From: Rhizobiales bacterium Ga0077545
Lineage (GTDB): Bacteria; Pseudomonadota; Alphaproteobacteria; Rhizobiales; Methylopilaceae
Length of the DNA: 32,000 nt
Assembly (NCBI GenBank): GCA_001464335.1
Contig: LNEV01000006.1
Coordinates: forward strand, 200,933-232,932
Direction of reading: 5' to 3'
Every line of letters starts with the position of its first letter. The first letter of the stretch is position 1. A program made the position numbers and the translations under genes. The notes below the pieces were generated by a model. It worked only from the letters and a program-made list of their open reading frames with translations. It searched no databases and was not told the origin of the DNA. Of the stretch, positions 3,041-31,210 are shown piece by piece.

Positions 3041-4309
3041 TTGCCGCCGCGACGACCGACCCGCCGCTACACCCTGACATCGCTCCTGAAAGAAGCGCGG
3101 CGGCAGCATCGCGGCTGGGAACCGGCCTGGCCGAAGGCCGAACCGAAAGCCTCCTACGAAATCGTGATCGCAGGCGGCGGCGGGCATGGACTGGCCACGG
3201 CCTACTACCTCGCGAAGCTTCACGGCATCCGCAACATAGCGGTCGTCGAGAAAGGCTGGCTCGGTGGCGGAAATGCGGCGCGCAACACCGCCATCATCCG
3301 CTCGGACTATCTCAGGCCCGAAAGCATGGCGCTTTACCGCCTCTCCCATTCCCTGTTCGAGCATCTGTCGACCGAACTCGACTTCAACGTCATGTATTCG
3401 CCGCGCGGCCTCGTGGAACTGGCCTATACGCGCCAGCACATGGAATTGCTGGCGCGCACCGCCGACGCCAACACCCATTACGGTATCAAAAGCTGGATGA
3501 TCCCGCCCGACGAGGTGAGGAAGCTGCTGCCGCTGCTCGATGACGGGCCGCACAAGCGCTATCCGCTGTTCGGGGCGCTGTGGCAGCCGCGCGGCGGCAT
3601 CGCCCGGCACGATGCCGTGATCTGGGCCTATGCGCGCATGGCCGCGCAGCTCGGCATCGACATCATCGAGAATTGCGAGATCGAGCGGATCGAGACGATC
3701 GGCGGGCGCATCTCGGGCGTGCGCACTTCGCGCGGCACGATTTCAGCGGGGACGGTGCTTGTGGCCACCGCGGCGGACACGCCGGCTTTGCTTGCGTCGC
3801 TCGGCATCAACCTGCCCATCGAGCCGGTGGCGCTGCAGGCTTTCGTGTCCGAACCGCTGAAACCGGCGCTCGATGTGGTGGCCATTGCGGGCGAGGTCGA
3901 GGGCTATATCAGCCAGTCCGACAAGGGCGAGCTTGTGATCGGCGGCGCGACGGACAAAGCGCCCGGCTACTCGCGGCGCGGCGCGTTTGCGAGCATCGAG
4001 GACACGGCCGCCAGCATGCTGGAGCTTTTCCCCTCCCTGTCGCGCGTGCGCATGATGCGGCACTGGGCGGGCACGGTGGACATCACGCCCGATCGCTCGC
4101 CCATCATCGGCGCTTTGGGCCTGCAGGGGCTTTTCGTCAATTGCGGCTGGGGCACCGGCGGCTTCAAGGCCATTCCCGGCTCGGGCTACGGCACCGCCAG
4201 CCTCATCGCGGGCGGCAAGGCGGCGCATGTGGTCGCGCCGTTCGGCCTCGACCGCTTCCGGCAGGGCCGCCTCATCGACGAAAGCGCGGCTTCGGCCGTG
4301 GCCCACTGA
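3041..4309 (+). CDS. soxB: sarcosine oxidase subunit beta
   Basis: 422 aa. Dinucleotide-binding motif YEIVIAGGGGHGLATAYYLAK. First gene of a soxB-D-A-G order. TTG start with no ATG upstream, so the start is uncertain by a few codons. Confidence 0.9.
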   Translation: MPPRRPTRRYTLTSLLKEARRQHRGWEPAWPKAEPKASYEIVIAGGGGHGLATAYYLAKLHGIRNIAVVEKGWLGGGNAARNTAIIRSDYLRPESMALYRLSHSLFEHLSTELDFNVMYSPRGLVELAYTRQHMELLARTADANTHYGIKSWMIPPDEVRKLLPLLDDGPHKRYPLFGALWQPRGGIARHDAVIWAYARMAAQLGIDIIENCEIERIETIGGRISGVRTSRGTISAGTVLVATAADTPALLASLGINLPIEPVALQAFVSEPLKPALDVVAIAGEVEGYISQSDKGELVIGGATDKAPGYSRRGAFASIEDTAASMLELFPSLSRVRMMRHWAGTVDITPDRSPIIGALGLQGLFVNCGWGTGGFKAIPGSGYGTASLIAGGKAAHVVAPFGLDRFRQGRLIDESAASAVAH

Positions 4310-4316
4310 GACCGCC

Positions 4317-4562
4317 ATGCTGCTCATCACCTGCCCCGTCTGCGCCGTCACCGCCGAGGAAACCGAATTTTCGTGCGGCGGGCTCCATGTCCAGCCGGGG
4401 GAGACACGTCGTTACGCGCGCGGCGTCGTGCGCGAATACTGGCTGTGCGCGGCCGGCTGCGGAAGCTGGTTCGGCCTTGCCCGCCACAGCGTGAACCAGC
4501 GCATTCTGGGAAGCTGGACCATGGGCAAGGAACCGCCCCTCTTTCCGGGTGAGACGGCATGA
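4317..4562 (+). CDS. soxD: sarcosine oxidase subunit delta (short, 81 aa)
   Basis: MLLITCPVCAVTAEETEFSCGG...WLCAAGCGSWF, a Cys-rich SoxD-type N-terminus. Lies between soxB and soxA, and its stop overlaps the soxA start (ATGA). Trimmed from the 111-aa track ORF. Confidence 0.8.
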   Translation: MLLITCPVCAVTAEETEFSCGGLHVQPGETRRYARGVVREYWLCAAGCGSWFGLARHSVNQRILGSWTMGKEPPLFPGETA

Positions 4563-7500
4563 CCTCGTCCCGCATTCCCAAGGACAAGGACCCGCGGTTC
4601 GGCCGCCTGATCGACCGCGACGCGCCGCTCGCCTTCACCTTCAACGGGAAGAAGCTGAAAGGCTTTGCGGGAGACACATTGGCGAGCGCGCTTCTGGCGA
4701 ACGGCGTGCGCACGCTCGCGCGCAGCGTCAAATATCACCGCCCGCGCGGCATCATGAGCGTGGGTGCGGACGATCCGAACGCCATCGTGCAGACCGGCAC
4801 GGGCGATCTGCGCACGCCAAACCAGAACGCGACGCGCATCCCGCTCGAAGCGGGGCTTGCCGTGGCGAGCCAGAACGCCTGGCCGTCCCTCGGCTTCGAC
4901 GCCGGCGCCCTGCTCGAGCGCGCCCGCCCGCTCATGCCGCCGGGCTTTCAATACAAGGCGTTCAAGCGCCCGCTGAAGGCCTGGCGCGCCTATGAGAAGG
5001 CGATCCGCAAGATCGCCGGTTATGGCACCGCGCCCGACAAACCCGACCCCGACCGCTACGAGCATGTGAACGCCCATGCCGACGTGCTGATCGTCGGCGG
5101 CGGCATTGCGGGCCTTGCAGCCGCCGAAGCTGCCGCGTCCGAGGGCCTCAAGGTTTTCCTCGCGGAGGCCGCCCCGCGGCTCGGCGGCATCGCGGACGCC
5201 TATGAAGGGCGTATTGACGGAATGCCGGTTCTCGACTGGGTCCGCCGCACGGCAGCGAAGCTGGCGGCGGCGGAGAACGTGCATCTTCTCGTCCACGCCG
5301 AAGTGTCCGGTCTTTACGATCACGGTCTTGCGGTGATCGTCGAGAACGTCACGCCGGACACGCGACCGGAAGAGGCCGGCAACATGCCGCGCCAGAGGCT
5401 CTGGAAGCTGCGCGCGAAGGCCGTGGTGCTGGCAACGGGCGCGTTCGAGAAGCCGCTGGTTTTCCCCGAGAACGACCGGCCCGGCATCATGCTCGCGACC
5501 TCGGCGCGGCTTTATCTGCGCCGATACGGCGTCGTGCCGGGGCAGAAAATCGTTATCGCGACATCGAGCGATGAAGGCTATCGCACCGCAACGGACCTCG
5601 CGGCGGCCGGTGCGGACATTTCGCGCATCGTGGATCTGCGCATTGCGCCGGACGGCGCGCTGTTTCACATGGTCAAATCCGGCGGCCAGTCGATCTCGGT
5701 GGCCTCGGCTCCCGTGTCGACACGCGGCAAGGGCACGCGCGGTATCACCGACGTCACCATCGCCAACCGCCTGACCGTGGACGGCCCGGCGCTCCGCTCC
5801 GTCATGTCCTGCGACACGCTTCTGGTGTCGGGCGGATGGGCACCGGCGCCCATGCTCGCCGGACATCTCGGCGCGCGCCTGAGTTTCGACCGCGAGCTCG
5901 GCGCCTTCCGTCCCGGCGATGTGCCGAAAGGCCTCATCGTCGCCGGAGCCGCCAACGGAAAATTCGATCTGGCGCTTGCCGTCGGGGACGGCTGGCGCGG
6001 CGGTGTCGAGGCGGCCCGGCACATCCTCGGCGCCGCCGCACGGGAGGCCGGATTTTCGGCCGCGGTCGAGGCCACGCAGGACGATCCCGCCGAAGCCATC
6101 GGCTCCCTGCCCGACATCTCCACCCCGGAGGAGCGCCTGCGCGCCTTCGTCGATGTGCAGACGGACACGACGGTCGGCGACATGGAAATCGCGGTCCGCG
6201 AAGGCTATGGCGCGCCCGAACATCTCAAACGCTACACCGGGCTCGGCCTCGGCACCGATCAGGGCAAAAGCTCGGTGGCGAATGCCGCCGCCATCCTGCC
6301 GCGACTTGGCGGCACGGCGGCCGACAGTTCCGCGCACACGACCTTCCGCCCGCCCTGGACGCCCATTGCGTTCGGCGCGATTGCGGGCGCAAGGCGCGGG
6401 CCGCTGTTTCGGCCCGTACGCACGACGCCGCTGACCCATCTTTTCGGGGATGCGATCCTCGAGCCGCTCGGTCTGTGGCGGCTTCCCGCGGCCTTCCCGC
6501 AGCCCGGCGAAACGCGCGAAAACGCCATCCGCCGCGAAGTGCGCACCGTCCGGGGCGGCATCGGCATTTTCGATGCCAGCGCGGGTGCGAAGATCCTCGT
6601 GTCCGGCACCGGCGCGGGCGAGTTTCTGGACCGGATGAGCGCGACGGATGTCGGCGACACGCCGATCGGCACGTCGCGCTATGCGCTGTTTTTGAACGAG
6701 GAAGGGTTCGTCATCGAGGACGGCATCGTCGCGCGCCTGCGCGAGGATCGCTTTCTCGTTTCGACGGGCGTCGGCCGGGCCGCCTCGCTGTCCGGATGGT
6801 TCGAGCGCTGGCACCAGACCCTGCTGCGCGATCTCGACGTCTTCATCGTGGACGAGACGGAACGTTGGGCGCAGATCCTGCTGGCCGGGCCGCAGGTGCC
6901 CGAGCTTCTCTCGCGCATTCCCGGCGACATCGACATATCGAGCTTTACGGTGGATTCGTTTGCGGAAGGCGATGTGAACGGCGCTCCGGCGCGCGCGCTC
7001 GCGAGCCGCTACACGGCCGGGGCGGAAGTCGAGCTGTCCATACCGGCGGGCAATGCTCCCGCCTTCTGGAACTTCCTCCTCGAGGCCGGGCGCGACATCG
7101 GCGTCGCGCGCTTCGGCATGGACGCCATGCAGCGGCTGCGTCTCGAAGCCGGAGCGTTCGATCTCGACCGCGAGACCGATGGCACCGTGACGCCTTACGA
7201 TCTCGGCCTTGGCGATCTCGTCTCGTCCGAGAGCGATTTCATCGGGCGTTCCGGGCTTGAACGACCCGCGCTGACGCGTCCCAACCGCCGTCATCTCGTC
7301 GGCGTCCTGCTCGATGACAAGATGCTGACCCCACCTCCGGGCAGCCATCTCATCCTTGATCCGGAGGAGCCGACGCCGCGCCGCGTCGTCGGTCACATCA
7401 CGACGTCGGGCTATTCACCGACCTTGCGACGCTCGCTCGCGCTGGCGCTTGTTTCGGCGGGCGAGAAGCATCTCGGCGACCGCGTGTTCGTCATGATGAC

Positions 7501-25131: not shown

Positions 25132-26403
25132 TCAGCTCACGCCGAACTTCAGCAGCTTGATCGCATCGAAATCCTGCACGCCGCCGCCGACGCGCTTGGT
25201 CGTGTAGAACAGCACATAGGGCTTTGCGGAGTACGGGTCGCGCAGCACGCGCACGCCCAGACGATCTACGACGAGATAGCCGCGCCGGAAATCGCCGAAC
25301 GCCAGCGCGAAACTGTTCGCGCCGATGTCGGGCATGTCCTCGGCTTCGGTCACCGGGAAGCCGAGCAGCGTGGCATCGCCTCCCGCCTCCGTCGGCGGCA
25401 TCCAGATGTAGCGGCCGTCGACATCCTTCAGCTTGCGCAGCGTTGCCTGCGTGCGGCGGTTCAGCACGAAGCGCGCGTTCTGGCGATAGCCCGCCTTCAG
25501 CGCGTAGACGAGTTCGATCAGCTCGTCGGCCGGCGCCTCTTCCGCGAAATCGCCGGACACGCCGGTCGCGATGTAGCCGAGGCTGCCCCAGGCCCAGTCC
25601 GCTTCGGCCACTTTCGTGCCGTGCAGAAAGCCGGTCGGCTTCTTGTTGCCGTCGCCGCTCACGAAGGCCGCGCTTTCCTGCGCGGCAAACGCGCTTTCCA
25701 CCTCCTGCGCGATCCACTGGTCGAGATCGACCGCGCTGTCGTCGAGCAGGGTCTGCGTCGCCGCCGGCATGGCATAGAGTTCCATGGCCGGGAATTCGAG
25801 TTCGGCAAGCGTCGGCGTGGTCGTCTGTGTACGTGCGTCGGTCTCGCCCGCCCAGCCGGAGGCAAAGCCCGTCGTCGCGAACGGTTTCTTGTAGGTCGCC
25901 GCCGAAATGGTGCGAAGGCCCGAAATGGCACGGATCGGCGATGCCGCGATCAGCCTCTTGCCAATCTCGCGCTCGGTCTCGTCCGGCACCGTGCAGCCGC
26001 CGTCGGCGCCGGTTCCCGCCGAAAGCGCCTTCGCATCGAGCCTGACGAGCGCGGACGCATCGCCACGGCGAATGTAAGTCTCGAACGCGGCCTTGCGTTC
26101 GCGCGTGCCGAGCGTCAGGCGCTCATGCTCCCCGCCGAGCGCCGGCCGCCGCGCCTTCAGCACGATCTCGTCGAGCGTCGCCTTCTGGCGGTCAAGCACC
26201 GCATCGATGCGCGCCAGTTTTTCCTCGGTCAGCGGATCGCCGGAAATCCGGTTCTCGATCTCGGCCAGGCGCTCGTCATTGGTTTCGCGATAGGTCTCGA
26301 ACGAGCGCAGGAAGGCGTCATACGCCTCCACCACATCGCCGCTTGTCGGCACATAATCCGCGGCCTTGTTTTCGGGCGCGCGGGGCGTTGCAAATCCGGT
26401 CAT
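25132..26403 (-). CDS. HK97-family major capsid protein (GTA g5)
   Basis: 423 aa from ATG 26403 (MTGFATPRAPENK...). N-terminal coiled delta-like region followed by an HK97-fold body. RBS GAGG lies 5 nt upstream. Trimmed from the 455-aa track ORF. Confidence 0.92.
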   Translation of the reverse strand: MTGFATPRAPENKAADYVPTSGDVVEAYDAFLRSFETYRETNDERLAEIENRISGDPLTEEKLARIDAVLDRQKATLDEIVLKARRPALGGEHERLTLGTRERKAAFETYIRRGDASALVRLDAKALSAGTGADGGCTVPDETEREIGKRLIAASPIRAISGLRTISAATYKKPFATTGFASGWAGETDARTQTTTPTLAELEFPAMELYAMPAATQTLLDDSAVDLDQWIAQEVESAFAAQESAAFVSGDGNKKPTGFLHGTKVAEADWAWGSLGYIATGVSGDFAEEAPADELIELVYALKAGYRQNARFVLNRRTQATLRKLKDVDGRYIWMPPTEAGGDATLLGFPVTEAEDMPDIGANSFALAFGDFRRGYLVVDRLGVRVLRDPYSAKPYVLFYTTKRVGGGVQDFDAIKLLKFGVS

Positions 26404-26420
26404 CGTCACCTCGTGGACAT

Positions 26421-26443
26421 AAAAAAAGCCGCTCGCGGCGGCT
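26421..26443 (-). terminator. terminator-like hairpin plus U7 tract between the protease and capsid genes
   Basis: Minus strand AGCCGC-cgcga-GCGGCT followed by TTTTTTT, then the capsid RBS. Confidence 0.45.
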
Positions 26444-26461
26444 CGGGATGGAAAGAAGAGG

Positions 26462-27043
26462 TCAGCGCCGGAACAGCGCCTCGGCCTCGGCGCGTGCACC
26501 GCGCGGAGAAGCCCGGCCGAACGGCATCCGCTCGCTGCGGAAGAAAACCGGCGTCTCCTTCACCGCCGCGATGCGGGCTTCGGGCAGCATCGGGAACGTC
26601 ACGATGGAAATCTCCCACAAATCGATCCGCTCGATGCGGCGCACGCCCGTGCGCGCATCGCGCCGCGCGCTGACGGCTTTGAAGCCGATGGAGAGCCCGT
26701 CGATGCCGCCCTCGCGGATCAGGGTCCAGACATCGCGCGCCTGGGCGACCTTGAGGCAGAGCCGCCCGCGCACACGCAGCCCCATCGCATCCTCGCGGAT
26801 CTCCTCCCACACGCCGATCGGCTGCGCCGGATCGTGCTGCCAGAGCATCCGCACGCGCCCTGCGCCCGTTTTCGTGAGGCTGTCGGAAAACGCGCCCTTG
26901 ACGATGAGATCGCCGCCGAGATCGGTCTCGCCGAACAGACTGGCATACCCCGTAATGACGCCGCTGAAGCCGTTTCCGGAAATGATGTTGGGTGCCCGCG
27001 CGAGCTTTTTGGTCTCGGACACGGGCGTAAAGAGTTTGGACAT
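26462..27043 (-). CDS. HK97-family prohead protease (GTA g4)
   Basis: 193 aa from ATG 27043: MSKLFTPVSE...FSGVITGYASLFGETDLGGDLIVKGAF...MLWQHD...GLSIGF. The 5' extension of the track ORF is translated repeat sequence. Confidence 0.88.
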   Translation of the reverse strand: MSKLFTPVSETKKLARAPNIISGNGFSGVITGYASLFGETDLGGDLIVKGAFSDSLTKTGAGRVRMLWQHDPAQPIGVWEEIREDAMGLRVRGRLCLKVAQARDVWTLIREGGIDGLSIGFKAVSARRDARTGVRRIERIDLWEISIVTFPMLPEARIAAVKETPVFFRSERMPFGRASPRGARAEAEALFRR

Positions 27044-27064
27044 GAAGGATCGCTCCCAGACAAA

Positions 27065-27180
27065 CCTCATCCTGAGCCGGACTCGCGGCAAAGCCGCGAG
27101 CCGCGTCGAAGGATGGCGGCGCATTCAGAATGTGTGGCTATCCTTCGACACGAGCCCTGCGGGCTCGGCTCAGGATGAGG
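27065..27180. repeat. composite structured inverted repeat, copy A (two units, tail-to-tail)
   Basis: Forward unit 27065-27114 is CCTCATCCTGAGCC-hairpin-GCGTCGAAGGAT. Reverse unit is 27140-27180, with a 21-25 bp spacer. Same family as copies B and C. Confidence 0.8.
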
Positions 27181-27286
27181 CCGATAAAAATTCAGCGGCC
27201 CGCCATCCGGCGGCGGCTCACGGACAAGGCAGCCAGCACCTGAAGAAAGGCGCGGATGATCGTCTCCGCTTCGCTCTGCGGCATGG

Positions 27287-27472
27287 TCAGTCTCCCTCGA
27301 AACGGCTGTTGAAGCGCGCCAGTTCGCGCACGAATGTGTCGAAGCGCCGGTTGGCGCAGGCGAGTTCGCGAAACGTCATGACGAACGCACCCCACCCCGC
27401 CGCCGCCAGCGCAAACAGCGCCAGATGCGCAAGATCGCCGCGCGCGGCGATGTGCGAAAGAATGTCGGGCAT
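27287..27472 (-). CDS. small hypothetical membrane protein in the g3.5 position
   Basis: 61 aa from ATG 27472: MPDILSHIAARGDLAHLALFALAAAGWGAFVMTFRELACANRRFDTFVRELARFNSRFEGD. One TM plus an amphipathic helix, high GC3, GGAG 10 nt upstream. Similarity to RcGTA g3.5 was not verified. Confidence 0.35.
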   Translation of the reverse strand: MPDILSHIAARGDLAHLALFALAAAGWGAFVMTFRELACANRRFDTFVRELARFNSRFEGD

Positions 27473-27489
27473 GGGATGCACACTCCGTC

Positions 27490-27569
27490 ATCCCGGAAAT
27501 CGCGCAGCGATTGTCCGGGATCGTCCACCACTCACGAAACGATCCCGGATCGGCTGCGCCGTCCGGGAT
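27490..27569. repeat. two tandem REP-like palindromic hairpins with ATCCCGGA...TCCGGGAT arms
   Basis: Hairpin 1 is 27490-27521 (14-bp arms, one bulge). Hairpin 2 is 27542-27569 (12-13-bp arms, one bulge). Hairpin 2 ends 5 nt from the portal stop. Confidence 0.6.
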
Positions 27570-27573
27570 GGCG

Positions 27574-28731
27574 TCAACCGCCATACCCCACGGCCGCGCG
27601 CTTCTCCGCATCGCTGAGAAAATCCGCAGCCGCGATCCGCCGCCACAGAGCCTCGCGCTCGGACGACAACGCCTCGATCCTGTCGAGATCGGGCTCCAGC
27701 CGGAGCGCGCTCTCGCCGAAGCCGGGCGCGAGCCAGTGCGCGATGTCGGCCAGCACGCGGTTCAGCAGCGGCAGAACGCTCTGGCGCCACAGCGCGCGGT
27801 TGGCTTCCTGATAATTCGCATATGTATTGTCGCCCGGAATGCCGAGCAGCATCGGCGGCACGCCGAAGGCGAGCGCGATCTCGCGCGCCGCGCCGTTCTT
27901 GGCCTCCATGAAATCCATATCCTTCGGGCTGAGCGCCATGTTCTTCCAGTCGAGCCCGCCATCGAGCAGAAGCGGCCGCCCGGCATTGCGCGGCCCGGAA
28001 AACTGGTTTTCCAGTTCCTCCTTCAGCCGCGAGAACTGCTCTTCCGAAAGGTTTGCGCCCTCCGGTCCTGAATAGACCAGCGCACCGGAAGGCCGCGCCG
28101 CATTGTCGAGCAGCGCCTTGTTCCAGGCCGAAGCCGCGTTGTGCACGTCGAGCGCCTGCGCGGCGGCTTCGAGCGGCGACAGCCCGTAATGATCGTCGAG
28201 CGGATGAAAGAAGGTGAGATGCAGAATGGGCCGCACCTCGCCGCTCTGGCGAAAACGCACGCTGTCGGCTCCCACCGTGTAATCATAGGCCTCCGGCCAC
28301 CCGTCCACGCCGGGCACGACCTTCATCCGGTCCGGGCGCAGCACATGAAGCTCGCGCGGCACGCCATCGAGCGCCGCCGCTTCGCAATAGCCGTTGCCGG
28401 CCACGAGCAGATGCCCGATCAGCGTTTCGAGAAAAGCCGAACCGCTCTGGCGCGCGTTCGGGCGCATGAGAAGTGAAAGCAGCGGATGCGTGTCGAGCTC
28501 GCGTGCCTCATTATAGATGAGCAGCGGCACGGACCCCGCCGCCTCGGCAATCATCCGCACGCAACGAAACACCACCGCGTTCTTCGTAAAGCCTTCGCGC
28601 GCCAGAGCCGCATAATCACGCGGCGTCCAGACCGGTCGCCCCGCCTGATGCAGCGCAACCACGGCCCCCGCGCGCGACGCCTTCTCCTCCGGCGCCACGC
28701 GGCGCAGGATGTTCTGCAGTCCTTGGAACAA
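27574..28731 (-). CDS. HK97-family portal protein (GTA g3)
   Basis: 385 aa. TTG start preceded by AAGGAG at 6-nt spacing. Sequence includes ...RDYAALAREGFTKNAVVFRCVRMIAEAAGSVPL... Confidence 0.9.
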   Translation of the reverse strand: MFQGLQNILRRVAPEEKASRAGAVVALHQAGRPVWTPRDYAALAREGFTKNAVVFRCVRMIAEAAGSVPLLIYNEARELDTHPLLSLLMRPNARQSGSAFLETLIGHLLVAGNGYCEAAALDGVPRELHVLRPDRMKVVPGVDGWPEAYDYTVGADSVRFRQSGEVRPILHLTFFHPLDDHYGLSPLEAAAQALDVHNAASAWNKALLDNAARPSGALVYSGPEGANLSEEQFSRLKEELENQFSGPRNAGRPLLLDGGLDWKNMALSPKDMDFMEAKNGAAREIALAFGVPPMLLGIPGDNTYANYQEANRALWRQSVLPLLNRVLADIAHWLAPGFGESALRLEPDLDRIEALSSEREALWRRIAAADFLSDAEKRAAVGYGG

Positions 28732-28764
28732 TTCGATCTCCTTCGGCCCTTGAACGATTCAAAA

Positions 28765-28923
28765 CCTCACCCTGAGCCAGACTCGCTGAAAGCGAGCCGT
28801 GTCGAAGCCTCATCCTGAGCCGGACTCGCAACGCAGTTGCGAGCCGTGTCGAAGGATAGCGACACGCTCAACATTCCGGGCCATCCTTCGACACGAGCCT
28901 GTCAGGCTCGGCTCAGGATGAGG
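28765..28923. repeat. composite structured inverted repeat, copy B (two forward units, spacer, one reverse unit)
   Basis: Units at 28765-28807, 28808-28857 and 28883-28923 (reverse). The copy ends 5 nt before the GIY-YIG ATG. Confidence 0.8.
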
Positions 28924-28928
28924 TTTGA

Positions 28929-29240
28929 ATGAACGCGTGGCTCTACATCGTCCGGTGCGCCGACAATTCCTTCTATGTCGGCACAACGCGCGACAGCCTC
29001 GAAACACGGATCGCCCAGCACAATGCCGGCTCGTTTCGCGGATACACCTTTACCCGCCGTCCGGTCGCACTCGTCTATTCGCAGGACTTCGACCGCATCA
29101 CCGATGCCATCGCCGCCGAACGCCAGGTCAAAGGCTGGAGCCGCGCCAAGAAACAGGCGCTGATCGACGGAAATTTTGGGATGCTGCAAGATCTCGCGAA
29201 GTGCCGCGCAACTCTCGCGCGCCAATCTCAATCATCCTGA
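28929..29240 (+). CDS. GIY-YIG nuclease family protein (small, stand-alone URI domain)
   Basis: 103 aa: WLYIVRCADNSFYVGTTRDSLETRIAQHN...AIAAERQVKGWSRAKK, showing the GIY / YIG / Arg / Glu motifs. The stop codon lies inside repeat copy C. Strand is opposite to the GTA genes. Confidence 0.85.
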   Translation: MNAWLYIVRCADNSFYVGTTRDSLETRIAQHNAGSFRGYTFTRRPVALVYSQDFDRITDAIAAERQVKGWSRAKKQALIDGNFGMLQDLAKCRATLARQSQSS

Positions 29241-29373
29241 GCCGGACTCGCGTCGAAGCCTCATCCTCAGCCGGACTCGCAACACAGTTGCGAGCCGTGT
29301 CGGGGATGGCCACGGGCTCCGAATGTGCCGCCATCCTTCGACACAGATGCTACGCATCTGGCTCAGGATGAGG
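29232..29373. repeat. composite structured inverted repeat, copy C (truncated forward unit, forward unit, spacer, reverse unit)
   Basis: Units at 29232-29258 (truncated), 29259-29309 and 29331-29373 (reverse). Confidence 0.8.
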
Positions 29374-29386
29374 TCGGGCCAGATAC

Positions 29387-29414
29387 CATCCCCTCACATC
29401 CCCTCACATCCCCC
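29387..29414. repeat. 10-bp tandem direct repeat CATCCCCTCA x2.7 spanning the terL stop codon
   Basis: Seen directly: catcccctca catcccctca catccccc. On the minus strand this reads GGGGATGTGA GGGGATGTGA GGGGATGG. Confidence 0.7.
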
Positions 29415-30762
29415 GCAGCCTCGGCACACCGCGCCCGGCTCCGCGCATCAGTTCGCTCACCGCCCACACCAGCGCATCGAGCCGGTCGGGCGAGCGTCCG
29501 GACGTGAGGCCGTTCAGGCCGAAGTCACACATCTCGTCTTCGAGCTCCTTCATCGGAACCGCGTGCCGCACCCGCCCTTGCGCATAAAGATTGGAGACCG
29601 GCTCGGCCCGCAGCCATTTCCCGCGCGTCGCATGAACGAGCGTCACCGGGATCGACGGATCGGCCTGGCCGATCACGGCCCGCACCATCTCACCGCCCTG
29701 ATTGGCCTCGGCCACCAGCGCATCGGCCTCGAAGGCGTGAAACGCGGCGGCCGCGGCGGCCGCCCACAGATCGGGCCGCGCCGCCGCGATCGTGCGGTCG
29801 CCCAATACATACGTCACGCCGTCCGGCGCGAGGCCCGCCGCAACAATGCCGCAGGCATCCGAATGCGCGTGGCCCGTTGCCGCCGGATCGACCGCAACGA
29901 CGATCCGCAGCAGCGCCGGCACCTCGCTCGCCCGCGCCTCCTCGATCATCGCGCGCGTCCACAGCGCATCGGCACGGTCTTCGATCACTTCGCCTTCAAG
30001 TTCCTGCCGCCCCAATCGGGTCCCCACATAGCGATTGACGATCCCGTCCAGAAAACGCGGCGAGAGATTGCGCGCATTGGCGAGCGTCGCGGCATGCGTC
30101 ATCACGGTGCCGGGATCGCGCATCAGGCGCTTCAGAAGCTGCGTCGGGCGCGGCGTCGTCGTCACCATCTGGCGCGGGCGTGTGCCGAGCCGAAGCCCGA
30201 ACTGCAACATGTCCCACACCGCATCGGCCTTCTTCCATTTGGCCAGTTCATCGCACCAGGCGGCGCCGAATTGAGGGCCGCGCAGGCTTTCGGGATCTTC
30301 CGCCGAAAAACATTGCGCCACCGCGCCGTTGGGCCAGGTCAGTTTTTTCAGGGTCGGCGTCCAGTCAGGACGCGCGCCCGGCAGCGAGAGAATGCCGGAG
30401 ACGCCCTCCACCATCACATCGCGCACATCCGCAGCCGTCTCGCCGATCAGGGCAATGCGCTCGACGGGCTCTGAGGTGAAACCCGGAAGGCCCAGCGCAA
30501 GCCCCCTCACCCATTCGGCGCCCGCGCGCGTTTTGCCCGCGCCGCGTCCGCCCAGAAAAAGCCATACGCTCCACGCGCCCTCCGGTGGCCGCTGTTCGGC
30601 ACGTCCGAACAGCATCCAGTCGTCCAGAATGCGCGCCACATCCTGCTGCGGCAGCGCTTCAAGCTTCTCCTGCAGAATCCGAAAGGCGTCCTGCCTCGTC
30701 TGCTGCACTGTCGAGCAATGCCTCAAGACGGCGCGCAAGATCGCGGCGGAACTCATCGACAT
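29404..30762 (-). CDS. terminase large subunit (GTA g2)
   Basis: LEALPQQDVARILDDWMLFGRAEQRPPEGAWSVWLFLGGRGAGKTRAGAEW (Walker A GRGAGKT). The track ORF begins at GTG 30804. In-frame ATGs are at 30762/30756 and a GTG at 30708. The true start is uncertain, and every option overlaps the g1-like gene. Confidence 0.9.
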   Translation of the reverse strand: MSMSSAAILRAVLRHCSTVQQTRQDAFRILQEKLEALPQQDVARILDDWMLFGRAEQRPPEGAWSVWLFLGGRGAGKTRAGAEWVRGLALGLPGFTSEPVERIALIGETAADVRDVMVEGVSGILSLPGARPDWTPTLKKLTWPNGAVAQCFSAEDPESLRGPQFGAAWCDELAKWKKADAVWDMLQFGLRLGTRPRQMVTTTPRPTQLLKRLMRDPGTVMTHAATLANARNLSPRFLDGIVNRYVGTRLGRQELEGEVIEDRADALWTRAMIEEARASEVPALLRIVVAVDPAATGHAHSDACGIVAAGLAPDGVTYVLGDRTIAAARPDLWAAAAAAAFHAFEADALVAEANQGGEMVRAVIGQADPSIPVTLVHATRGKWLRAEPVSNLYAQGRVRHAVPMKELEDEMCDFGLNGLTSGRSPDRLDALVWAVSELMRGAGRGVPRLRGM

Positions 30763-31210
30763 CGATTTCGTCTCTCTCTGCCACCGGCTCGTGCGGAGTT
30801 TCACCCTCGATCCGCTTCAGTTCCGCCATTGTCTTGACCAGGCTCGCGAGCGTGCGCGCAGCGCGTTCGCTGTCGTTGGCCCGCGCCGTGCGCGGGCCGG
30901 GTTTCGAGAGATCGAATTCGGCCAGCAGGATTTGCCGTTCGATGTGCGCGCGCACCCGCCTGGAAAGGCCTTTCATCGTGGCGCCTTCCGGCTCCTTGCG
31001 TTTGCCGAGACGGCTCGGCAGGCGCAAATTCCAGCCCATGCGGACAACGCGCCGGGACAATGTGCTCTGCCCGATCCCCATCAGCTTTGCGATCCTCGCC
31101 ATCGGCACATCGGTCTGCTCGTAAAGCGCCCGCGCACAGATCAGCACATGATCCTCGCTCCCGTTGTCGTCGATGTTCTTGTCTTCCGAAACGATCTCCC
31201 CTTCGGACAT
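30659..31210 (-). CDS. GTA g1-like protein, putative HTH small-terminase-like DNA-binding protein
   Basis: 183 aa from ATG 31210 (MSEGEIVSEDKN...), with GGAG 7 nt upstream. HTH-like VPMARIAKLMGIGQSTLSRRV. First gene of the cluster. Trimmed from the 214-aa track ORF, whose extension covers the leader hairpin. Confidence 0.55.
   Translation of the reverse strand: MSEGEIVSEDKNIDDNGSEDHVLICARALYEQTDVPMARIAKLMGIGQSTLSRRVVRMGWNLRLPSRLGKRKEPEGATMKGLSRRVRAHIERQILLAEFDLSKPGPRTARANDSERAARTLASLVKTMAELKRIEGETPHEPVAERDEIDVDEFRRDLARRLEALLDSAADEAGRLSDSAGEA

Follow-up and report, generated by a model that had tools for sequence, protein, structure and literature searches.

The window analysed here, a stretch of 32,000 nucleotides from contig LNEV01000006.1 of Rhizobiales bacterium Ga0077545, carries on its minus strand a head-tail gene cluster of the RcGTA type (GTA, gene transfer agent), identified by Pfam search. 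The gap of 672 bp between its large terminase gene (terL) and its portal gene holds a unit of 610 bp (28765-29373), in which a small GIY-YIG nuclease gene, read antisense to the GTA genes, is enclosed by inverted copies of a hairpin repeat. With a probability of roughly 0.65 this unit is a nuclease-repeat cassette resident in the GTA spacer and belongs to a system that would work like the Ssn nucleases with their SRM hairpins and is organized like the RAYT transposases with their REPIN repeats; it is filed beside both without membership in either being claimed. The cassette, its two neighbouring genes and its gene-less relative comprise the following features.

28765-28807, plus strand: outer forward unit, variant CCTCACCCTGAGCC...GTGTCGAAG, forming the left cassette end; 2 mismatches to the 22-mer CCTCATCCTGAGCCGGACTCGC
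28808-28923, plus strand: full element B (forward unit, spacer of about 20 nt, reverse unit); DNA fold of -47.4 kcal/mol, z = -10.5, four-way junction
28929-29240, plus strand: open reading frame (ORF) of the GIY-YIG nuclease, 103 aa, intact; PF01541, E=4e-17
29230-29258, plus strand: truncated forward unit AATCATCCTGAGCCGGACTCGC-GTCGAAG, which contributes the nuclease stop codon
29259-29373, plus strand: full element C (forward unit, spacer, reverse unit), forming the right cassette end; z = -6.3 on the plus and -8.5 on the minus strand
27065-27180, plus strand: solo full element A, lacking a nuclease gene and located in the upstream spacer of the prohead protease gene; DNA fold of -52.6 kcal/mol, z = -11.1
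29404-30804, minus strand: terL, the upstream neighbour of the cassette in GTA sense; Terminase_6N, E=7e-31, and Terminase_6C, E=1e-23
27574-28731, minus strand: portal gene with TTG start, the downstream neighbour in GTA sense; Phage_portal, E=2e-91

At up to 3 mismatches the 22-mer CCTCATCCTGAGCCGGACTCGC matches 6 times within the window, with 0 matches expected: at 27065 and 27159 (minus strand) in copy A, at 28765 and 28808 in copy B, and at 29230 and 29259 in copy C. A sequence-only reading of this DNA had described the unit as copy B, the antisense nuclease gene and copy C between terL and portal, and every checkable detail of that description is correct. The outer ends (28764-28781 and 29357-29374) are indeed terminal inverted repeats, 94% complementary over 18 nt. 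The 3' GGATGAGG of element B ends 5 nt ahead of the nuclease ATG, separated from it by TTTGA (28924-28928), and the stop codon TGA (29238-29240) falls within the TCATCCTGAG of the truncated unit of copy C, both as described. The run of four U after copy B on the GTA-sense strand is likewise present (GAGGTTTTGA), and the portal ribosome-binding site (RBS) GAAGGAGA is placed between copy B and the portal TTG start. Full elements A, B and C out-fold shuffled sequences on both strands, with z from -6.3 to -11.1.

The basic piece of the repeat is a hairpin unit of about 45 nt, C(C/G)TCAYNN-TGAG-[variable hairpin]-TCGAA-N'N'RTGAGG, and two inverted units (forward unit, short spacer, reverse unit) make up the full element, a layout shared with REPIN, the doublets of REP (repetitive extragenic palindromic) hairpins. 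Full elements were compared across 82 sources, namely 81 fetched loci of the nuclease clade of the window and the window itself. The 60 full elements found in 40 of these sources have conserved arms; the sequences of their small internal hairpins differ entirely from one another, but the pairing is always kept. Where the CC of TCAYNNTGAG is replaced by GG or GC, TCGAANNRTG shows the complementary change within the same half and not in the partner half; the pairing changes thus stay within one half, and the basic piece is therefore the unit of about 45 nt. Among 238 units drawn from 73 sources (72 loci and the window), the NN of TCAYNNTGAG is complementary to the NN of TCGAANNRTG in 214, compared to a shuffle mean of 149 and a shuffle maximum of 162. 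The stem covariation score is 0.297 versus 0.137 on 122 distinct arm pairs; 0 of 500 shuffles scored as high, and controls with slid partners reached at most 0.092. A cloverleaf model for the full element, with outer and central stems at a four-way junction, was dropped, as covariation fits pairing within each half-unit better. Some unit variants begin with CGTCAT, like the NTS repeat of Neisseria. At locus L060 (4056-4962) five full elements stand in tandem at a spacing of about 200 nt directly upstream of a GIY-YIG gene, and all five carry a compensated GG/CC variant in the forward unit only.

Homologues of the nuclease are tied to this unit. From at least 576 confirmed matches 80 homologue loci were fetched from named genomes. 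Four exact 9-mers of the unit occur in these loci at 4.3 per kb within 350 bp of the gene versus 0.096 per kb elsewhere, a 45-fold enrichment that bears out the suspected physical association of the repeats with GIY-YIG genes. Unit motifs stand on at least one side of the gene in 64 of the 80 loci and on both sides in 51. Among the 81 clade loci the commonest layout has a forward unit about 18 nt ahead of the ORF and a reverse unit about 16 nt behind it (43 loci with the forward unit upstream, 33 with the reverse unit downstream, 22 with both), and the gene therefore occupies the position of the spacer in the doublet. The gene-bearing form relates to the gene-less form as an autonomous element to its miniature derivative. 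The gene also reads into the repeat: the nuclease stop codon lies within a unit arm (TCATCCTGAG or CTCAGGATGA) in 19 of the 80 homologue loci (L009-L088), and in a Terrihabitans genome and a metagenome-assembled genome, both with 66% identity, the gene is bracketed by related elements and its stop is the TGA of TCATCCTGAG. Many C-terminal tails (...SS, ...SSG, ...HPSRRPPAAGSSG in alignment A1) are translated repeat.

Gene-less copies are more numerous than gene-linked ones. A metagenome scan with a 20-mer of the window subfamily delivered 20 loci, 18 of which are true solo units or doublets, typically located just after a stop codon; none of these 18 adjoins a GIY-YIG gene on its metagenome contig. 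Copy A, a solo full element, is accordingly the gene-less relative it had been taken for. In viral contigs there were 0 matches to the 22-mer. Different nucleases are accompanied by different flanking repeats, such as the Sphingomonas type, the NTS type and the GTCCCGG type. On a plasmid of Sphingomonas parapaucimobilis (L094), a GIY-YIG gene whose product shares 50% identity with the window protein has another long hairpin repeat (GGGCTTCGACTTCGCTCAGCCTGAACGG...) on its flanks, at 1370-1460 and 1790-1815. On metagenome contig L316 an Ssn-type GIY-YIG gene (3893-4325) is flanked by a third repeat class, GGATTCCGGATC...GCATGCGTCCGGAA, and a solo unit of the window subfamily lies 4 kb from that gene; two or more nuclease-repeat pairs can therefore be present in a single genome.

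The terL-portal junction was compared among close relatives, chosen by portal identities of 82-87%, with the following states.

L300: junction of 0 bp (TGAATG), empty
L093 (Terrihabitans sp. B22-R8): junction of 18 bp
L089: junction of 152 bp, ending in the remnant TTCGACACGGCTCAGGATGAGG, which lies some 20 nt ahead of the portal ATG
L092 (Flaviflagellibacter), 4807-5000: junction of 194 bp of a different repeat class
L090, 4490-5000: junction of 514 bp with an antisense DUF559 ORF between copies of a second repeat class
L297: junction with the orthologous GIY-YIG cassette, 86% aa identity, one upstream element

The comparison of empty and occupied sites that the sequence-only reading had called for thus finds a polymorphic junction, empty in the close relatives L300 and L093. 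L297, L090 and L300 are mutually 91-93% identical at the portal N-terminus and 84-86% identical to the window; they are closely alike yet their junctions differ, so that this tight group contains three states side by side. The nuclease genes of the window and L297 show a synonymous divergence (dS) of 0.85 and a ratio of nonsynonymous to synonymous divergence (dN/dS) of 0.10; the adjoining portal gene gives 0.70 and 0.15, respectively. Cassette and portal are both under purifying selection since the split from L297. As the dS of the cassette resembles that of the flanking portal, vertical descent is indicated, and the data fit a cassette co-inherited with its flank, with the nuclease under selection, and later lost or replaced in L300 and L090. 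The ORF in L090 is DUF559/Vsr-like (PF04480, E=6e-27) and is cut at profile position 79 of 109; the portal there is 86% identical to that of the window. It is bracketed by CTCTCCCGTTTACGGGAGAGG... / ...CCTCTCCCGCAAGCGGGAGAGG. In the L092 junction this second repeat class (CCCCTCTCCC...GGGAGAGGG plus GGGGTGAGGGG) stands alone, and elsewhere it often abuts CCTCATCCTGAG units (L317, L319, L320), yielding mosaics of repeat families like those of bacterial interspersed mosaic elements (BIMEs).

The nuclease itself consists of a single GIY-YIG domain (PF01541, residues 3-75 of 103 aa), which places it within the limit of 150 aa for single-domain proteins of the Ssn kind, and lacks any DNA-binding extension. 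At the N-terminus (MNAWLYI) it aligns with the homologues, and the catalytic-type residues Y6, Y16, R27, H31 and E64 are invariant in an alignment of 30 sequences (A1). A motif KGWSRAKK is carried by the clade of the window nuclease; its W also occurs in Ssn-type proteins. No NCBIfam model matches the protein. Relatives number 2865 at E<=1e-3, and the close ones are found in unrelated housekeeping neighbourhoods, for example beside ffh, fliP and folC. Identical homologue proteins always have the same neighbours, and one homologue is found on 44 contig blocks always between the same genes; there is no sign that the nuclease gene itself hops often. The mobile cassette proposed from the sequence alone accordingly holds as far as a nuclease with repeats, inverted ends and empty sites in relatives is concerned, but the gene was never seen in two contexts. 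A general link of this nuclease clade to GTAs was rejected, since 0 of the 80 fetched homologue loci contain terL or portal.

The best matches among solved structures are the UPF0213 proteins BH0048 (PDB 1zg2, E=6e-11) and EF2693 (PDB 1ywl, E=3e-9), each aligned at 36% identity across the full length. UPF0213-type small GIY-YIG proteins rank among the most frequent bacterial proteins whose role is not known. We are aware of no report that links UPF0213 (YhbQ-YazA) family proteins to repeats.

That no function or mobility mechanism is defined for an association of GIY-YIG genes with repeats, as the earlier reading of the sequence had it, is outdated: small GIY-YIG proteins with flanking hairpins have been described as site-specific nucleases of single-stranded DNA (ssDNA) (Chenal et al. 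2025, PMC11893778). The 94-aa protein SsnA of Neisseria meningitidis has a single GIY-YIG domain; it binds the hairpin repeat NTS that flanks its gene, cuts only ssDNA next to the NTS hairpin, and reduces the integration of transforming DNA flanked by NTS. Its homologues across phyla are flanked by related hairpins, the SRMs, and bind and cut their own repeat, in the ssDNA form only (PMC11893778). The authors remarked on the layout NTS-ssnA-NTS, which is like an insertion sequence, and on the parallel to REP-associated transposases, and defined the Ssn clade by BLASTP to N. meningitidis SsnA (E<1e-10, 75% cover) with cd10448 as top CDD hit (PMC11893778).

The window system resembles Ssn/SRM in having a single-domain GIY-YIG protein of about 100 aa, a gene standing between copies of a multi-copy hairpin repeat that also occurs alone, and a repeat of its own for each nuclease lineage. 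It differs in the repeat, a compound hairpin of about 45 nt usually doubled to 74-160 nt, whereas the SRM is a simple hairpin of 20-50 nt, and in the protein, which lacks the C-terminal NPxWxDL motif seen in NTS-flanked proteins and groups nearer to UPF0213, with these NTS-flanked proteins as proxy for Ssn. With REPIN-RAYT it shares inverted doublets of hairpin units dispersed in intergenic DNA, repeats that far outnumber the genes, and a nuclease gene of low copy number that has these units on its flanks and apparently descends vertically; the enzyme, however, is a GIY-YIG protein and not an HUH/Y1 transposase, and the units are longer and branched.

On the observed anatomy, gene-repeat association, stem covariation, site polymorphism and purifying selection, the system may be pictured as a small single-domain GIY-YIG gene embedded between inverted copies of its presumed cognate hairpin unit of about 45 nt, with gene-less inverted doublets of these units present as well (copy A and numerous solo copies in related DNA). 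On the analogy of SsnA, the nuclease would bind the folded unit in ssDNA and nick beside it, and the same analogy suggests that its activity might create, spread or maintain the repeat population. The gene itself seems to be passed on vertically as a stable resident. In an ancestor shared with one sampled relative (L297), the cassette would have entered the terL-portal spacer, and other close relatives would have lost or replaced it.

Several observations weigh against this picture. The published SRM motif, HGTCWYN(0-2)YYVSBRHN(0-5)WNVSBRGN(0-2)RNCYNB, has 0 matches in the whole window and stands near the gene in 1 of 72 homologue loci, which is no enrichment; the repeat was therefore not filed as an SRM. 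As stand-ins for SsnA, GIY-YIG proteins flanked by exact NTS repeats were taken from an NTS scan of viral contigs. The window protein is 31-39% identical to these Ssn-type stand-ins and scores 49.3 bits, compared to 59.7 bits with the UPF0213 protein BH0048, and in a rough neighbour-joining tree as well as by mean scores the window clade and the Sphingomonas protein stand nearer to UPF0213, with the NTS-type proteins as a separate clade. Stem covariation in a DNA palindrome could equally reflect templated copying instead of selection on the fold. Neither a target-site duplication nor a conserved target was seen around the copies inspected by eye (untallied), and no case of the same cassette in two contexts was seen.

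A further reading, possible but held only tentatively, goes beyond the resident cassette and sees a replicator of the REPIN-RAYT type built on the GIY-YIG fold: a UPF0213-like lineage, distinct from Ssn as proxied by NTS, would recognize the compound hairpin in ssDNA and copy or move the gene-less doublets, with the gene-bearing form as the ancestral autonomous element. Miniature inverted-repeat transposable elements (MITEs) and their autonomous partners, and the IS200/IS605 elements, offer a parallel, as the gene-bearing and gene-less forms share ends, the ends are hairpins, a target-site duplication is missing by eye and L300 has a clean empty site; they differ in that the cassette carries no transposase of a known class and its gene-bearing form was never seen in two places. 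To our knowledge, no transposition mechanism has been described for GIY-YIG proteins in bacteria. If true, this reading makes GIY-YIG nucleases a further class of enzymes that mobilize bacterial DNA repeats.

The position within a GTA cluster raises the question of how common such insertions are. An unbiased sample of 80 loci, chosen only by portal similarity, gave 67 terL-portal junctions. The junction had been called normally tight in the sequence-only reading, which is only roughly true: the median gap is 118 bp, within a range of 12 to 2322 bp. In three of the 67 junctions (L233, L248, L265) there is a GIY-YIG gene of the Ssn type, antisense and accompanied by a repeat class of its own, and these three are the only GIY-YIG genes anywhere in the 80 loci. 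Among 120 NTS-bearing viral contigs, 15 have a terL match and 13 of these also a portal match. Directly after terL, an NTS-flanked GIY-YIG gene is found antisense in L151 and L098 and in sense orientation in L176 and L209; in L151, L098 and L176 it lies between terL and portal. Gaps of more than 1 kb with unrelated cargo occur in L220, L274 and L217/L218: one such gap contains an antisense ORF resembling a GGDEF diguanylate cyclase by eye, another a 217-aa ORF without Pfam match, and the L217/L218 pair a conserved ORF of about 210 aa with a sub-threshold Pfam match only. Further long gaps carry other ORFs or plain repeats. Small nuclease-repeat cassettes of at least five kinds have thus settled repeatedly in this junction, which may simply tolerate insertions, be targeted by them, or have a functional tie to gene transfer. 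We found no paper linking GIY-YIG genes to the GTA terL-portal junction.

A tie to gene transfer would mean that the nuclease restricts or shapes incoming ssDNA bearing the unit, as SsnA does in Neisseria transformation, and that the GTA location reflects this link. DNA delivered by GTAs enters recipients via a competence-type machinery. This speaks for such a role, as do the Ssn-type genes in 3 of the 67 unbiased junctions, the four NTS-selected GTA loci (L151, L098, L176, L209) and the lowered integration of NTS-flanked transforming DNA caused by SsnA (PMC11893778). However, the junction also accepts a DUF559 gene, a GGDEF-like gene, other ORFs and plain repeats and may be simply permissive, not one of the 80 fetched loci of the nuclease clade lies in a GTA cluster, and the orientation is mostly antisense to the GTA operon, so that we regard this explanation as improbable.

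The repeats might instead be elements of the GTA operon acting at the RNA level (terminators, attenuators or, like REP, stabilizers of mRNA) with the nuclease gene as a passenger, and their very stable folds, the U4 run after copy B on the GTA-sense strand, and the solo copies just after stop codons, as in REP and BIMEs, agree with this. Yet a terminator consensus scan called none at copy B, where only 4 U follow a branched fold, and no promoter-like site was called either. No Rfam family reached its gathering score across the whole window; at permissive thresholds the sole repeat match on 26950-29450 was RAGATH-10 (E=0.87, 20.8 bits versus a cut-off of 41.2), which was taken as chance. The two strands fold equally well, the 45-fold enrichment next to GIY-YIG genes is left unexplained, and in the lineage sharing the cassette the downstream portal is under purifying selection. 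This explanation is therefore quite unlikely, and the termination between terL and portal that had been suggested from the U run is not borne out.

Very unlikely is a free-standing homing endonuclease like Seg of T4-type phages (or of the I-TevI type), spreading by cutting GTA or phage genomes without it and already considered in the sequence-only reading, since the GIY-YIG catalytic domain set antisense between the conserved virus-type genes terL and portal, the empty sites in relatives and the recurrence of small GIY-YIG genes at this junction in other GTA clusters are outweighed by a single domain of 103 aa without DNA-binding domain, by its placement in another subfamily with UPF0213 proteins as nearest solved relatives and an overall UPF0213/Ssn-like character, by chromosomal, repeat-linked homologues in housekeeping contexts (terL or portal in 0 of 80), by repeats standing alone in ordinary intergenic regions, and by a cassette dS that resembles the portal dS and points to vertical descent.

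The principle of a repeat paired with a nuclease was already published in 2025 (Chenal et al., PMC11893778). In the searchable literature no description was found of this unit, of its doublet form or its gene-bearing form, of the nuclease lineage, which is likely a different one, or of the polymorphic site in the GTA cluster; no paper was found that contains the unit sequences in a relevant context. The locus ties one nuclease lineage to a defined, covarying repeat unit in gene-bearing and gene-less forms, at an orthologous site that is empty, occupied or replaced among close relatives, and widens the Ssn finding to a repeat outside the published motif and possibly to a nuclease outside the clade. 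These hairpin repeats litter the intergenic DNA of many Alphaproteobacteria, where they break assemblies and yield spurious ORFs and odd C-termini. The system offers concrete substrates for biochemistry and new specificities of ssDNA cutting. It also singles out the GTA terL-portal spacer as a site where small nuclease genes insert repeatedly, and a possible link between nuclease and GTA transfer is therefore open to experiment.

The GTA cluster has the gene order terL, portal, S78 protease, HK97 capsid, connector and tail genes, conserved across genera together with its chromosomal place. Two of its ORFs in the vicinity of the cassette were identified by position and by the Pfam-annotated genes of relatives.

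26462-27124, minus strand: prohead-protease ORF
25132-26499, minus strand: capsid ORF

The same gene order stands beside the same PBP and CxxCxxCC genes in 4 of 5 relatives checked, including Terrihabitans sp. B22-R8; in the fifth, Flaviflagellibacter, the order is kept and the left-hand neighbours differ. Because gene order and PBP/CxxCxxCC neighbours are kept across relatives, the cluster fits a GTA rather than a prophage. The longest protease ORF (26462-27124) begins within solo element A (27065-27180). The true protease start is likely a downstream ATG giving MSKLFTPV, and element A would therefore stand immediately upstream of the protease RBS. At 27205-27193 (minus strand), immediately before element A when read in GTA sense, there is a hairpin that resembles a terminator and has a run of T. 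Between element C and the terL stop, at 29387-29406, the 10-mer CATCCCCTCA occurs in two direct copies and a third partial copy, and the second copy overlaps the terL stop codon (29404-29406, minus strand) by 3 nt.

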